Below, piece by piece: positions 43,225 through 51,171 of a stretch of 64,000 bases of DNA. The position numbers and the translations under genes were made by a program. The notes below the pieces were generated by a model. It was given only the letters and a program-made list of their open reading frames with translations, made no database searches and was not told the origin of the DNA. Within the stretch, counting starts at the first letter, position 1, and every line of letters starts with the position of its first letter. Source of the stretch: an uncultured Eubacteriales bacterium (GTDB lineage: Bacteria; Bacillota; Clostridia; Christensenellales; CAG-138); NCBI GenBank assembly GCA_902797145.1, contig CADBRR010000002.1, positions 5,203 to 69,202 of the forward strand. Direction: 5' to 3'.

Positions 43225-44034
43225 TTGAATAAAAAACGAAGCATTATAATATTTGTTTTGTTGATTGTTGTGCTGATAGTCGGGATAATTTTAGTAGGCG
43301 GAACACAGGAAAAGACAGAAAGCATAAAGGAAATAATGCGTGATGCGGTTCTGCATGAAAACGATAGAATAAATGTGTTCGGGATTTTTAATGCTAATCC
43401 GGGACTTGTGGCTGCGTTTGCAGTTACAGCAATAACGCTTGTATTTTCGCTTATTGTTAGAATTTTCGTTATACCAAAGTTTAAGAATAAGCCAAAAGGA
43501 TTCCAGCTCGTGCTTGAAATGTGCGTTGGATATTTTGACAAACTTTCAAAGAGTAATAGTCCGCATAGGAATAAGTTCCTCGGAGCATATGTTTTTGCGG
43601 CAGGATATTACATATTTGTCAGCACAATGCTTGAAATGCTTGGCTTGCAGGCTGTAAGCGCAAATGGAGCATCGGTTTCGCTTCCTGCGCCACTTTCAGA
43701 TATAAACGGAGCTATTGTAATGGGTGTTTTTTCTTATGGCGTAATTTTAATAGGCGGTCTTGTCGGTAATGGATTTAAGGGCTTTGCAAATGCGCTAAAA
43801 GATTTTTCGTTGCCGATTTCTATGAGCTTCCGTCTGTTCGGTGCGCTTTTGAGCGGTGCGCTCGTAACGGAGCTTGTATATTATTATACAGCAATGAATT
43901 ATGTTGTTCCGATAATTGTCGGAGTTATGTTTACAATTCTTCATGCTGTAATTCAGGCATACGTGCTTACTATGCTCGTTGCACTGTTCTATGGCGAATC
44001 GAATGAAAAGAAGGAAAAAAGGGTAAAGGCTTAA
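43225..44034 (+). CDS. atpB: F0F1 ATP synthase subunit a
   Basis: 269 aa, polytopic. Contains the conserved stator arginine context (ISMSFRLFGALLSG). First gene of the a-c-b-(delta)alpha-gamma-beta-epsilon cluster; TTG start. Confidence 0.8.
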   Translation: MNKKRSIIIFVLLIVVLIVGIILVGGTQEKTESIKEIMRDAVLHENDRINVFGIFNANPGLVAAFAVTAITLVFSLIVRIFVIPKFKNKPKGFQLVLEMCVGYFDKLSKSNSPHRNKFLGAYVFAAGYYIFVSTMLEMLGLQAVSANGASVSLPAPLSDINGAIVMGVFSYGVILIGGLVGNGFKGFANALKDFSLPISMSFRLFGALLSGALVTELVYYYTAMNYVVPIIVGVMFTILHAVIQAYVLTMLVALFYGESNEKKEKRVKA

Positions 44035-44054: not shown

Positions 44055-44420
44055 ATGAACAAGTTTTTTAAAATTTCAATGTTAGTAGTAGCAGTAATGC
44101 TTATAGTTTCAGTATTTTCGGTGACAACGCTTGCAGAAAACACAGGAGAAACAGTTGTTGCTGAAAGTGCATCAACTGAATCAAATGAATCGAATGTTAC
44201 ATCAATGAAAGCAATTGCAGCAGGTGCAGTTATTCTCGTAGTTGCATCTGTTGGCGCAGTAATGATGGGGCTTTCAATAACAAAGTCGGCAGAATCTATC
44301 GCAAGACAGCCCGAAGCTGCTGGCAATATTAGAACTAATATGATGCTCGGTCTTGTATTTATTGAAACAGCAATCATTTATGCGCTTATCGTAGCAATAC
44401 TTATCGTATTCGTACTATGA
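44055..44420 (+). CDS. atpE: F0F1 ATP synthase subunit c with a ~50-aa N-terminal presequence
   Basis: The C-terminal 71 aa form a c-subunit hairpin (ESIARQPEAAGNIRTNMMLGLVFIETAIIYALIVAILIVF) with the carboxylate E. AAGGAG RBS precedes ATG 44055; no RBS precedes the internal Met at 44205. Confidence 0.85.
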   Translation: MNKFFKISMLVVAVMLIVSVFSVTTLAENTGETVVAESASTESNESNVTSMKAIAAGAVILVVASVGAVMMGLSITKSAESIARQPEAAGNIRTNMMLGLVFIETAIIYALIVAILIVFVL

Positions 44421-44439: not shown

Positions 44440-44922
44440 ATGCCACTTAATATTGATGTGGGACAGATACTTGTCCATATGCTGAACTTTGTTTTGTTAT
44501 TCGGCATATTATATTTTGTTCTTTATGCGCCTATAAAGAAATTTATGGACAAGCGCACGGAAGAATATGAAGAGCGTGAAAATGAAATAGAAGGGAAGAT
44601 GAATGCGCTTGAAGAAGAAAAACAGGAGTATGTAGAAAAATTTTCTAATCTTGAAAATGATCTTGCTAAAAAACGCAGCGAAAATGAAAAAATGCTTGCA
44701 AAGGAGCAGGCAGAAAGCCGAATGAAAGCTGAAAAAGAAGCTGCTGATATTATCAATAAGGCAAGGGAACAGGCAAAAAAAGAAAAAAACAGAATTATGC
44801 GTTCAACCGATGATGAAGTAAATAAAATGTTGTCGGATGCTTTTGAAAAAATAACATATAAGGACAATGACAGTGCATATGATGCTTTCTTTGCACAAAC
44901 TCATAAAAAGGATAGAAAATAA
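44440..44922 (+). CDS. atpF: F0F1 ATP synthase subunit b
   Basis: 160 aa with one N-terminal TM helix, then a long charged coiled-coil (E/K-rich). Position is between c and alpha. Confidence 0.75.
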   Translation: MPLNIDVGQILVHMLNFVLLFGILYFVLYAPIKKFMDKRTEEYEERENEIEGKMNALEEEKQEYVEKFSNLENDLAKKRSENEKMLAKEQAESRMKAEKEAADIINKAREQAKKEKNRIMRSTDDEVNKMLSDAFEKITYKDNDSAYDAFFAQTHKKDRK

Positions 44923-46664
44923 TGAATGAGAAAATAAATGCTAAGCTATATTCGTGTGAAAGACCCGATGAAAAAAGATGGGCGCAGATAATTGATTTTA
45001 TAAAAGAAAATCATGGCGAAGCAGAACTCGAATTTGTTTGTGATAAAAGCATAGTCGGCGGATTTAGACTCGAAGTCGGTTCATGGACATATGATTGGAC
45101 GAAAGAGGGCAGAATGCGCCAGCTTAAAAATGCTGTTTTTAAGTCTGTTAAGAATTTTGAATCCAAAGAAAAACTCGTTTCGCTTATCGGTGGTGTTACA
45201 GAAACATTTTCGCCACGAATAATTGCTGAGGAAGTAGGAATTGTAAAACGGGTTCATGACTCAATAGCTTTTGTAAGTGGACTCGATAGAGCAGGCTATG
45301 GCGAAATACTCGTTTTTGAATCGGGAGTTCGAGGTATAGCGTGGGAACTTTCAGATGGCGAAATAGGCTCAATTATATTTGAAAACGGAGATAAAAATCT
45401 TGTAAAACAGGGAAGCTATGTAAAACGAACAGGTCTTGTTGCAGGAATGAAGGCCGGAGATGATTTTATTGGTAGGGTCGTTGATCCGTTTGGAAATCCG
45501 ATTGATGAGTTGGGCGAAATAAATTATGATAAACTTATGCCGATAGAAAGCGATGCTCCCAAAATAGTAGATAGGGAATCCGTCAATAGACCTCTTGAAA
45601 CAGGGATACTCGTGCTTGACTCACTATTCCCGATTGGAAGAGGACAAAGGGAGCTTATAATAGGTGATAGGCAGACAGGAAAAACAACAATAGCGATTGA
45701 TACTATAATAAATCAAAAGGGCAAAGATGTAATTTGCATTTATGTTGCAATAGGTCAGAAGGCAAGTTCTATTGCAGGAATAGTAAACAAATTAAAAGAG
45801 CATGGCGCAATGGACCATACTATAGTTGTTGCAACAACTGCATCAGATGGCGCTTCAACGCAGTATATAGCACCATATTCAGGCTGTGCGCTTGCAGAAT
45901 ACTTTATGGAGCAGGGCAAAGATGTTCTTATCGTCTATGATGATTTGTCAAAGCACGCTGTTGCATATAGGGCATTAAGCCTTTTGCTTGAAAGGTCGCC
46001 GGGCAGGGAAGCATACCCGGGCGATGTATTCTATCTGCATTCAAGATTGCTTGAGCGTTCTGCACAGCTTAATGATTTAAAGGGTGGAGGAAGTATAAGC
46101 GCTTTGCCGATAGTTGAAACGCTTGATGGCGATGTTTCAGCGTATATTCCTACAAATATAATTTCTATAACAGATGGGCAGATATTCCTTGAAAGTGACT
46201 TGTTCTTTAACGGACAAAGGCCTGCTGTTAATATCGGGCTTTCGGTGTCAAGAGTTGGTTCTGATGCGCAGACAAAAGCAATGAAGGCTGCATCGGGAAC
46301 TTTAAGGGTCGACCTTGCGCAATATAGGGAAATGGAAGTTTTCAATCGTTTTATGACCGAAATAGATACAGCAACCGAAAAGCAGCTCAAACATGGCAGG
46401 ATACTTATGAAACTAATAACTCAAAAGCAGCATAGCCCATTGTCAAGGCATGAGCAGGTTATAACTTTATCCGTTGCAAATAGAAGCAGAATTATTGACG
46501 AAGCTGTTGAAAAGAGCGGTATTGATGTTCGTGAATATGTTAAAAAGATGATAGCGTATTTTGAAAAAGAACATAAGCAGTTGTGCGATGATATTGATAA
46601 TGATATGTGTTCAAGTGAAGTTATAGATATAATTGTTCAAAAGGCTAGCGAAGCGGTTATTTGA
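44922..46664 (+). CDS. atpA: F0F1 ATP synthase alpha subunit fused at its N-terminus to a delta/OSCP C-terminal-domain-like segment
   Basis: 580 aa. Residues ~1-76 are delta-CTD-like (ELEFVCDKSIVGGFRLEVGSWTYDWTKEGRMRQLKNAV). They are followed by a normal alpha subunit (EEVGIVKRVHDSIAFVSGL, Walker A GDRQTGKTT, YDDLSKHAVAYR). The ATG overlaps the atpF stop (TAATG). Confidence 0.85.
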   Translation: MNEKINAKLYSCERPDEKRWAQIIDFIKENHGEAELEFVCDKSIVGGFRLEVGSWTYDWTKEGRMRQLKNAVFKSVKNFESKEKLVSLIGGVTETFSPRIIAEEVGIVKRVHDSIAFVSGLDRAGYGEILVFESGVRGIAWELSDGEIGSIIFENGDKNLVKQGSYVKRTGLVAGMKAGDDFIGRVVDPFGNPIDELGEINYDKLMPIESDAPKIVDRESVNRPLETGILVLDSLFPIGRGQRELIIGDRQTGKTTIAIDTIINQKGKDVICIYVAIGQKASSIAGIVNKLKEHGAMDHTIVVATTASDGASTQYIAPYSGCALAEYFMEQGKDVLIVYDDLSKHAVAYRALSLLLERSPGREAYPGDVFYLHSRLLERSAQLNDLKGGGSISALPIVETLDGDVSAYIPTNIISITDGQIFLESDLFFNGQRPAVNIGLSVSRVGSDAQTKAMKAASGTLRVDLAQYREMEVFNRFMTEIDTATEKQLKHGRILMKLITQKQHSPLSRHEQVITLSVANRSRIIDEAVEKSGIDVREYVKKMIAYFEKEHKQLCDDIDNDMCSSEVIDIIVQKASEAVI

Positions 46665-46665
46665 T

Positions 46666-49102
<2,437 letters not shown>

Positions 49103-49119
49103 TATATTTTTGTGATATG

Positions 49120-49148
49120 TTGACAGTTTGAGATTGGTGAATTATAAT
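49120..49148 (+). promoter_or_regulatory. Consensus sigma-A promoter
   Basis: Perfect TTGACA (49120-49125) - 17 nt - TATAAT (49143-49148), 62 nt upstream of ATG 49210. Confidence 0.7.
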
Positions 49149-49209
49149 TAAACTGATTAAATTGTGATATTTTTTGTTAATATATGCACATAGCAAGGAG
49201 ATATTGAAA

Positions 49210-51171
49210 ATGAGAAAATTGTTGTGGACTCCGTCAGAAGAGTTTATAAAGTCAACAAATATGTATGACTTTATGATGTATGTAAATAAGGAAAAGGGAC
49301 TTAACCTTTCAGATTATAAGTCACTTTATAATTGGTCTGTAACAGAAATATCGGATTTCTGGGATTTGCTGTGGAAATATTTCGATATAGTATGCTCAAA
49401 ACCATATACAACACCTGTAGATGATATTAAAAAGTTTCCGGGCGCAAAGTGGTTTGTTGGCGCAGAACTCAACTATGCAGAGAATATGTTGAGATATGCA
49501 GATTCAGATAAAACAGCAATTATTTTCCGTGGTGAAAATAGCGTAAGGAGAGAAATTAGCTTTAGAGAACTTAAAGATGAAGTTATCAGAATGGCAACTT
49601 CACTTCGTAAAGAAGGAGTAAAGGTTGGCGATACTGTTGCAGGCTATATCCCGAACCTTCCTGAAACAATTATTGCAATGCTCGCAACAACAGCAATTGG
49701 CGCAACATGGTGTTCATGTGCAACAGATATAGGTCCGGGCGCAGCAGTTGACAGACTTGGTCAGGTTAAGCCTAAGGTACTTGTTACAGCTGATGGTTAT
49801 TACTATAAGGGAAAGAACTTTGATGTTACAAAGAACGCAGCTATAATTGCAGATGGTATCGAAACTGTAAATAAGGTAGTGGTAGCTCACTATGCAGGCG
49901 ATATGGAACATATTGCAGGAATCAAGAACGCTGTTGCATGGTATGATTTCCTTGAAAAGACAGCTCCTGCTGACTTCAAGTTTGAACAGGTTGAAAGCTC
50001 ACAGCCTATGGTTGTTATGTTCTCATCAGGTACAACAGGTAAGCCTAAGTGTATGGTTCAGTCAGTTGCAGGCTTGCTCCTTAATCAGCTTAAAGAACTT
50101 GCACTCCATAACGATGTTAAGCCCACAGATAGAATGCTTTATATCACAACTTGTAGCTGGATGATGTGGAACTGGCAGGCAGCTACTATTGGAACAGGCG
50201 CATCAATCGTTCTTTTTGATGGTAATCCCTCATATCCTGATACTTCAGCAATATGGAAGATTCTTGAAGAAGAAAAGGTAACTATATTCGGTTTAAGCGC
50301 AAGCTATGTTCATGCGCTTTTAGCAGAAGGCTTCTCTCCCAAGAATACAGTTGATTTGAGCGCACTTCGTGAGATTTCACAGACAGGCTCAGCGCTTTCA
50401 GAAGATGGCTTTGAATATATTTATAGAGAAATTAAGAGCGACTTGCACTTCAATTCAATCGCAGGCGGTACAGACATCAATGGTTGCTTTGCATCAGGTA
50501 ACCCAATGAGTCCCGTATATTCAGGCGAATTGCAGAATGCAGGACTTGGAATGAAGATAAACTGCTATGACGATAATGGCAAGGCAATCAGAGATGAACA
50601 GGGTGAACTCGTTTGCGAAGCACCGACACCGTCAATGCCGTTGTATTTCTGGAATGATGCTAATAATGAAAGATATATGGACGCATACTTTAGAGTATAT
50701 CCAAATATCTGGCATCATGGCGACTATGTTCTTATCCATGGCGATACGGGCGGAATAACATTCTATGGCAGATCTGACTCAGTTCTCAAGCCTTCAGGTG
50801 TAAGAATTGGTACTGCTGAAATTTATAACCAGGTAGATAAGATTGATGGAATCAAGGATAGCCTTGTAATCGGTCAGTATTATAATAACGATCAGAGAAT
50901 AGTTCTCTTTGTTCAGCTTAATGACGGAGTAGAGCTTACGGAAGAACTCAAGAAAGAGATAAAGACAACATTGCGTACAAAGGCATCACCTCGCCATGTA
51001 CCGGCTGTTATAATGCAGGTTCCTGATATTCCGAAGACTCTTAACGGCAAGAAAGTAGAAAGTGCTGTTACTAATATTGTAAACGGCAGAAAGGTTACAA
51101 ATAGGGATGCACTTTCAAATCCTGAATCACTCGACTTCTATGTAAGCATATTGCCGGAACTTAAAAAGTAA
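49210..51171 (+). CDS. Acetoacetate--CoA ligase (acetoacetyl-CoA synthetase)
   Basis: 653 aa from ATG 49210 (AAGGAG RBS). AACS-type N-terminus (LLWTPSEEFIKSTNMYDF...LYNWSV.EISDFWDLLWKYF). AMP-binding motif (MFSSGTTGKPK) and C-terminal PKTLNGKK. Confidence 0.8.
   Translation: MRKLLWTPSEEFIKSTNMYDFMMYVNKEKGLNLSDYKSLYNWSVTEISDFWDLLWKYFDIVCSKPYTTPVDDIKKFPGAKWFVGAELNYAENMLRYADSDKTAIIFRGENSVRREISFRELKDEVIRMATSLRKEGVKVGDTVAGYIPNLPETIIAMLATTAIGATWCSCATDIGPGAAVDRLGQVKPKVLVTADGYYYKGKNFDVTKNAAIIADGIETVNKVVVAHYAGDMEHIAGIKNAVAWYDFLEKTAPADFKFEQVESSQPMVVMFSSGTTGKPKCMVQSVAGLLLNQLKELALHNDVKPTDRMLYITTCSWMMWNWQAATIGTGASIVLFDGNPSYPDTSAIWKILEEEKVTIFGLSASYVHALLAEGFSPKNTVDLSALREISQTGSALSEDGFEYIYREIKSDLHFNSIAGGTDINGCFASGNPMSPVYSGELQNAGLGMKINCYDDNGKAIRDEQGELVCEAPTPSMPLYFWNDANNERYMDAYFRVYPNIWHHGDYVLIHGDTGGITFYGRSDSVLKPSGVRIGTAEIYNQVDKIDGIKDSLVIGQYYNNDQRIVLFVQLNDGVELTEELKKEIKTTLRTKASPRHVPAVIMQVPDIPKTLNGKKVESAVTNIVNGRKVTNRDALSNPESLDFYVSILPELKK

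Follow-up and report, generated by a model that had tools for sequence, protein, structure and literature searches.

An F1 alpha subunit fused to a delta C-terminal domain in a clostridial atp operon lacking atpH, and its predicted peripheral stalks

The fused gene at the atp locus

We have analysed a stretch of 64,000 nucleotides (nt) of contig CADBRR010000002.1 from an uncultured Eubacteriales bacterium (assembly GCA_902797145.1), which is called the window in the following. It carries on its + strand a compact atp operon for an F-type ATP synthase, in the order a-c-b-[deltaCTD-alpha]-gamma-beta-epsilon (Table 1). The gene following that of subunit b is a single open reading frame (ORF) of 580 amino acids (aa), in which the C-terminal domain (CTD) of the delta subunit is joined to a complete alpha subunit by a linker of about six residues. 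It is a genuine translational fusion that stands in for atpH. It is a functional design and not a product of decay.

The two parts of the fusion can be clearly delimited by family profiles. PF00213 (OSCP) aligns residues 3–71 to profile positions 101–171 of 172 (Pfam), while positions 1–100, corresponding to the delta N-terminal domain (NTD), find no match in the protein. The hit clears the cut-off of 22.3 bits both when the full protein is scanned (29.2 bits) and when only its N-terminal 110 aa are (33.3 bits). Against TIGR01145, the family of canonical delta subunits, the fusion scores 23.1 bits, below the cut-off of 57.5, and only the CTD part is covered. TIGR00962 (atpA) aligns residues 83–575 to model positions 5–493 of 503, with 660.7 bits against a cut-off of 484.45 (NCBIfam). 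The alpha part has an intact P-loop (GDRQTGKT), and its N-terminal helix is formed by residues 83–95.

The predicted structure agrees with this partition. In the AlphaFold2 models, residues 5–76 fold as beta-alpha-beta-beta-beta-alpha, with a predicted local distance difference test score of 81–90 in the full-length model and 87–96 in the N-terminal one, and the alpha N-terminal helix is placed after this module, at residues 82–95. When the N-terminal model was compared with solved structures by Foldseek, nearly all matches were the delta/OSCP CTDs of ATP synthases, e.g., 6n2y_I and 6oqr_W. The linker region differs in both sequence and length across relatives. By analogy with the engineered enzyme discussed below, the module probably serves as the docking site for the b2 stalk.

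Upstream of the fusion, AAGGA sits 9 nt 5' of the ATG, and the stop-to-stop frame begins at 44916, just two codons before this start. Since the frame opens only there and atpF occupies 44440–44922, a delta NTD cannot be encoded in front of the fusion. No separate delta-CTD ORF was found elsewhere in the 64-kilobase (kb) window. A first-pass annotation, made from the letters of this DNA, had claimed that the operon has no atpH, that only the delta-CTD is kept, in frame with alpha, and that no coding space is left for the N-terminal bundle of delta. All these claims are borne out: the fusion directly follows b, PF00213 is matched from position 101 onwards and TIGR00962 from residue 83. Its further statement, that the catalytic motifs of alpha, beta, a and c are intact and that this does not look like simple decay, agrees with the family signatures; the other subunits of the operon are intact.

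Table 1 The fused gene, its parts and the other genes of the atp operon in the window
Feature	Position	Strand	Description
Fused deltaCTD-alpha gene	44922..46664	+	580 aa; ATG overlaps the atpF stop codon (TAATG)
Delta/OSCP C-terminal domain module	44928..45149	+	Residues 3–76; PF00213, AlphaFold2 fold, Foldseek
Linker	45150..45167	+	Residues 77–82, between predicted helices 61–76 and 82–95
F1 alpha part, complete	45168..46664	+	Residues 83–580 and stop codon; TIGR00962, PF02874, PF00006, PF00306
atpB, Fo subunit a	43225..44034	+	269 aa from the listed TTG start; PF00119 ATP-synt_A, E 2.3e-18; first gene of the operon
atpE, Fo subunit c	44055..44420	+	121 aa; PF00137 at residues 54–117 (two-helix hairpin)
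atpF, Fo subunit b	44440..44922	+	160 aa; PF00430, E 5.7e-11; sole b gene
atpG, gamma	46666..47436	+	256 aa from ATG 46666; PF00231, E 8.1e-51
atpD, beta	47442..48854	+	470 aa; PF00006, PF02874, PF22919
atpC, epsilon	48851..49102	+	83 aa; PF02823 at residues 4–81

Spread and integrity of the fusion

The 580-aa protein is found identical on four independent ENA metagenome assemblies, with 0–1 nucleotide differences. We have then surveyed the distribution of the architecture by matching a narrow peptide pattern, LEVG[SAT]x[VTI]YDW, against the GTDB species-representative genomes (a six-sequence alignment subset was used), and at least 148 genomes match it. Loci were fetched from 80 of the 148, and the delta-CTD runs in frame into alpha in all 80. 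These loci bear the labels Clostridia, Oscillospiraceae, Oscillibacter and Faecalibacterium; Lachnospiraceae and Blautia; Anaerovoracaceae and Mogibacterium; Candidatus Gallimonas; Peptoniphilaceae; and Acholeplasmatales and Anaeroplasmataceae. The same architecture is also present in a metagenome-assembled genome (MAG) of Holdemanella. Overall, the delta-CTD-alpha architecture is far from unique to the window genome and is widespread in Clostridia, Acholeplasmatales, and Erysipelotrichaceae.

Of 81 loci, 63 show the gene order a-c-b-fusion-gamma-beta-epsilon, and the others are mostly cut by contig ends. The first-pass annotation had proposed to look among relatives for the 580-aa architecture as well as for a stand-alone atpH; besides the fusions described above, no further delta-CTD ORF is present within the ±6 kb flanks of the 80 loci. 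In five loci an additional c-like ORF precedes a (order c-a-c-b-fusion...), and one locus (L080) gives two b hits, with its b split into two ORFs.

A homologue search with the whole protein gives a consistent picture, as N-terminal delta-CTD modules are found in 118 of the 120 best matches listed. The modules of relatives are 27–46% identical to that of the window and have the invariant positions in common, and the alpha N-terminal helix is conserved across fusions as IIPLLK..V..WTP. The two exceptions, P0002 (717 aa) and P0003 (621 aa), are the two top-scoring homologues and are alphas with a normal N-terminus and no OSCP module. Each of them matches the nucleotide-binding and C-terminal domains twice, which suggests internal duplication or mis-assembly.

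Searches with the N-terminal part were less productive. Word-indexed searches with the N-terminal 110 aa or with the N-terminal alignment gave nothing and three fragments, respectively, the index being too coarse for such a divergent module. An exhaustive search of representative sequences gave 268 clusters at E<=1e-10, which are mostly contig-end fragments. Because the end-points of these matches form a continuum, the short ones are not read as stand-alone delta-CTD proteins. In this search the full-length fusions presumably fall into ordinary-alpha clusters at 50% identity.

One might suppose that a frameshift from sequencing or assembly, or else a deletion in a dying operon, has joined a truncated atpH to atpA. 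The epsilon subunit cut to 83 aa, the rather short gamma and the metagenome-type look of the source assembly would fit such an origin. However, many families have kept the architecture at an identity of only ~33–46% in the N-terminal module, and every catalytic and family signature is intact and above its curated cut-off. Since the identical ORF recurs in four other, independent assemblies and the species genomes above are built alike, the fusion is no artefact. We thus regard an origin by artefact or decay as effectively refuted, with next to no probability left to it.

Another question is whether one product or two are made. Internal initiation or proteolysis near the junction could release a free alpha, and possibly a free delta-CTD, so that some alphas would be without the module. 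The short and variable linker would allow this, and an ATG at 45114 (Met65) is in frame and follows AAGAGGG at 4-nt spacing (region 45100–45116). This start lies just outside the interval 45120–45240, for which no in-frame start with a ribosome-binding site had been reported at first, so that the earlier statement has to be amended. Met65 is however part of the last delta-CTD helix, and relatives do not conserve it. Even when weak Shine-Dalgarno-like motifs are counted, one with an in-frame ATG, GTG or TTG within 35 codons of the junction is seen in just 14 of 81 fusions. As about 10% of the in-frame start codons elsewhere in alpha have such a motif, starts near the junction are not enriched, and we reject internal initiation at ATG 45114 as a conserved mechanism. 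In addition, the junction is in frame not only in all 80 loci but also in forms with two or three delta-CTD copies, which argues for selection on the covalent link. The covalent fusion is the conserved state, with no conserved internal start that parts the delta-CTD from alpha, and we consider a two-product scheme very unlikely.

Tandem modules and the remaining subunits

The delta-CTD is not always a single copy. Among the 118 fused homologues listed, 69 have one copy, 48 have two, and 1 has three. The two-copy forms are ~663–683 aa long (e.g., P0006, P0016, P0039, P0048 and P0063; loci L081–L083 and L085–L087), and the three-copy form is a 755-aa protein of the Holdemanella MAG (P0062, L084:4225-6492). 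The repeats are 61–72% identical to each other in the two-copy forms examined and 37–49% in the three-copy form. As core residues are kept at these identity levels, this suggests that all delta-CTD copies in the tandem forms are under selection.

The b subunits of fusion-type operons share a conserved C-terminal motif, S.A[FY][DE].F[LF].A, which appears in the window as DSAYDAFF. In the clade with two delta-CTD copies, b is 234–239 aa long compared with the usual ~160–170 aa (L081:7301-8011, L085:4304-5008, L086:4292-5011 and L087:4298-5011), and this long b has the motif ESDxA[LV]YDx[YF]L twice, ~70 residues apart. No OSCP match was found in it. These sequences point to a co-duplication of the two binding partners, the delta-CTD and the b motif, in this clade. 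The contact between b and the delta-CTD has apparently been kept, since the motif is conserved in general and doubled in the two-copy clade. A strict 1:1 rule between the copies of the CTD and those of the b motif is rejected, as it is broken by one single-CTD locus (L015) and by the three-copy Holdemanella form.

The c subunit of the window starts with a signal-peptide-like segment (MNKFFKISMLVVAVMLIVSVFSVTTLA, followed by E...), which is followed by an acidic linker and then a normal hairpin. A usual c subunit is ~70–90 aa long, and the c ORFs of related fusion-type operons (the c genes of L001–L087) are nearly all 102–166 aa. In all the c subunits examined in these operons, the hairpin is preceded by a signal-peptide-like segment with an AxA-type site and then by a linker that is acidic or rich in Ala. 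In the literature, we found no paper on signal-peptide-like extensions of c.

The epsilon subunit of the window consists of the beta-sandwich only, compared with 134–148 aa in most related operons. It has no C-terminal inhibitory helices, as PF00401 gives no match in atpC, and there is no room for them before the next gene. The start of atpG was taken from gene calls on the identical contigs (ATG 46666); the ORF list has TTG 46633 as an alternative, which would give 267 aa with a 32-nt overlap with alpha, and gamma is somewhat short with either start. No terminator-like site was found 3' of the operon in the window, and a perfect sigma-70 consensus (TTGACA, 17 nt, TATAAT) lies at 49120–49148, between atpC and a 665-aa ORF at 49174–51171.

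An assignment to the N-ATPases was also considered. These have the gene order beta-epsilon-...-a-c-b-alpha-gamma (PMC5709465). The order in the window is canonical and the fusion scores 571.9 bits against a cut-off of 750.5 for TIGR03324, and the assignment is rejected.

Counterparts and the predicted number of stalks

The closest structural counterpart of the fusion is man-made. In a search of PDB sequences with a profile of the N-terminal module, the first match is 9jc1_I. The whole-chain model also finds its best fold match in chains I/J/K of 9jc1 (Foldseek, E 9.6e-50 over 577 columns), with every ordinary alpha ranked below, and residues 21–558 are collinear with residues 20–553 of chain I. 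The entry contains three copies of this 580-aa chain, under the name "ATP synthase delta subunit, ATP synthase subunit alpha". It represents an FoF1 of Bacillus PS3 that Ueno et al. engineered and termed deltaΔN-alpha (bioRxiv 10.1101/2024.08.27.609901; Nat Commun 2025, PMC12229609). In their construct delta residues 2–104 are removed and residues 105–178 joined via GSGG to alpha; cryo-electron microscopy reveals about two b2 stalks on average and up to three, each with its own a subunit, and the contacts between b2 and the delta-CTD are canonical (PMC12229609). The H+/ATP ratio of this enzyme is 5.9 as against 3.1, and the equilibrium proton motive force is halved, from which work the authors conclude that the delta-NTD on the symmetry axis limits F-ATP synthase to one stalk (PMC12229609).

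The two proteins share the arrangement of delta-CTD, short linker and complete alpha, as well as the length of 580 aa. The engineered enzyme was also built in a background without the epsilon C-terminal domain (epsilon-ΔC), as is the case for the epsilon of the window, and we regard this as coincidence. On the other hand, the engineered protein comes from a thermophilic Bacillus background and was expressed in E. coli, and the window protein is only ~46% identical to it overall and ~20% in the delta-CTD. Moreover, its multi-stalk state was established by experiment, whereas that of the window enzyme is a prediction. This work overturns two views held in the first-pass annotation, i.e., that no delta-alpha fusion has been described and that an F1Fo has one peripheral stalk. 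The latter view made a delta-CTD on each of three alphas look paradoxical, and this paradox is precisely what Ueno et al. address. The idea raised there that the covalent tether may replace the contact between the delta-NTD and alpha matches the design logic and the cryo-electron microscopy of the engineered enzyme.

Natural deltaΔN-alpha fusions have been noted as well, in Acidaminococcus fermentans (D2RLW6) and in UniProt G4Q3K6 and A0A1I2C5T3, and a natural multi-stalk enzyme has been called "highly likely", pending experiment (PMC12229609). Their atp operons, too, lack the delta-NTD and have the delta-CTD fused to alpha, with multiple stalks predicted. A. fermentans is a Negativicute, whereas our loci are from Clostridia, Acholeplasmatales, and Erysipelotrichaceae assemblies, and they are set beside it by description only. 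The two- and three-copy CTD forms, the duplication of the b motif and the c extensions are absent from the text of Ueno et al. (PMC12229609). In short, the architecture is already known, since its design, its structure and natural examples of it were published in 2024–25, and the window adds another member whose stalk number is predicted only. What is new here is the breadth of the distribution, the tandem CTD forms, the duplicated b motif, the c-subunit extensions, and, in the window, the reduced epsilon.

Other departures from the ordinary peripheral stalk can be distinguished from the present one. The F1Fo of Chloroflexus aurantiacus is a natural enzyme with two stalks and two a subunits (PMC12002316). 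It is similar in that a natural F-type enzyme escapes the one-stalk rule through an altered delta-NTD while the delta-CTD docks b as usual. However, its delta is encoded by a gene of its own, and the NTD, shortened to four helices, forms a dimer on top of F1, so that there are exactly two stalks. As the window has neither a separate delta ORF nor any delta NTD, and Chloroflexus has no alpha fusion, a two-stalk assignment of this type is rejected. The best PDB match of the window b is the b subunit of C. aurantiacus (9itj_U, E 3.4e-10), compared with E ~0.01 for Bacillus PS3 b, and this may reflect coiled-coil composition only. The mycobacterial b-delta fusion (PDB 7jg5, 8j0s) is also a peripheral-stalk fusion with delta, and its delta-CTD is homologous to the window module, but there a full-length delta is attached to b, in one copy per enzyme with a single stalk. 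This type is rejected too, since the window b matches PF00430 only and has no OSCP domain in the Pfam scan. Canonical delta and mitochondrial OSCP (PF00213) share with the window the C-terminal alpha/beta domain that binds the stalk; they are free two-domain proteins present once per enzyme, whereas in the window the CTD alone is present, once per alpha.

We infer from these comparisons how the fused enzyme might be built. In an ordinary enzyme, the delta N-terminal bundle sits on the three-fold axis of F1, grips the alpha N-termini, and restricts the complex to one stalk. In the fusion this bundle is lost, and the delta-CTD is tied by its short linker to the N-terminal helix of each alpha. 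The tether would then take over the lost contact between the delta-NTD and alpha and create three equivalent docking sites for b2, with the fused CTD and the adjacent conserved alpha N-terminal helix, as is well supported, probably receiving the b2 C-terminus. More than one b2 stalk could be bound per complex, each adding a subunit a, and the extra a subunits would move more ions per turn of the c-ring. A strict anaerobe could thereby synthesise ATP even when the ion-motive force is low, or in reverse move more ions per ATP. The fusion does replace atpH; that the tethered delta-CTD on every alpha lets the complex bind two or more b2 stalks, together with an a subunit for each, we consider somewhat more probable than an even chance. 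The multiple stalks and the raised ion/ATP ratio would follow, by analogy only, from the three equivalent docking sites and the absence of an NTD on the axis.

Several points weigh against this proposal. The number of stalks is carried over from the engineered enzyme, a protein of a thermophilic Bacillus that was over-expressed in E. coli, and even that sample was a mixture of one-, two-, and three-stalk particles (PMC12229609). For a natural deltaΔN-alpha enzyme, we found no paper with a published verification. The stoichiometry of a, b and gamma is not readable from sequence, and the genes for a and b each occur once in the operon, at their usual places. The search for atpH in the window genome spans 64 kb, and a stand-alone atpH could lie elsewhere. 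The numbers of b motifs do not simply follow those of the CTD either: one motif is present in the 157-aa b of the three-copy Holdemanella form, and two are present in the b of the single-CTD locus L015 (b ORF 657–1229). Finally, the two-copy loci look like one clade, so that the co-duplication may represent a single event.

The main rival to more than one stalk is that the fusion replaces delta while only one b2 stalk and one a are bound. In this case two delta-CTDs would be idle, the fusion would be a neutral or assembly-simplifying "Rosetta stone" event, and the ion/ATP ratio would be unchanged. The single a and b genes in canonical order are just what this explanation expects, nothing found in a, b or c demands extra copies, and the tandem CTDs can be read as securing one attachment instead of adding stalks. 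The engineered population also included single-stalk particles that closely match the wild type, but on average the complexes had two stalks with two a subunits, and the stalk, a and c had not been altered in any other way (PMC12229609). A single stalk would hence need a limiting mechanism unknown so far, because an enzyme with a CTD on every alpha and no NTD averaged two. Besides, Chloroflexus shows that natural F-type enzymes can have more than one stalk (PMC12002316). The two explanations cannot be separated by sequence alone, and we regard the single stalk with two idle modules as a possibility of some weight that nevertheless falls clearly below an even chance.

If more than one stalk is bound, the consequence may extend well beyond the window organism. 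F-type enzymes with 2–3 stalks and 2–3 a subunits, with an ion/ATP ratio 2–3x the canonical one, could be the standard F1Fo of much of the gut and rumen Firmicutes, in a lineage that has elaborated the design further. We put this wider claim forward tentatively, as one a little short of even. The groups concerned would be Oscillospiraceae/Faecalibacterium, Lachnospiraceae, Anaerovoracaceae/Mogibacterium, Gallimonas, Acholeplasmatales, and Holdemanella, together with the window organism, and the elaborations would be the tandem two- and three-copy delta-CTDs, the co-duplicated b docking motifs, and the signal-peptide-bearing c subunits.

The ion/ATP ratio sets the smallest ion-motive force that is still able to make ATP, and to our knowledge it was thought until 2025 to vary with the size of the c-ring only. 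The fusion itself will be no surprise to the specialist. Among strictly anaerobic bacteria of the gut and rumen, at least ~150 genomes at the species level encode the architecture, which also occurs in two- and three-copy versions. This scale of distribution and the tandem variants make the question of natural multi-stalk enzymes readily testable, and cultured carriers would allow a direct test. If they turn out to have a single stalk, something other than the delta-NTD limits the stalk number. If they have several, the ATP yields that are assumed for major gut taxa in models of fermentative, Rnf-dependent energy conservation would have to be revised.

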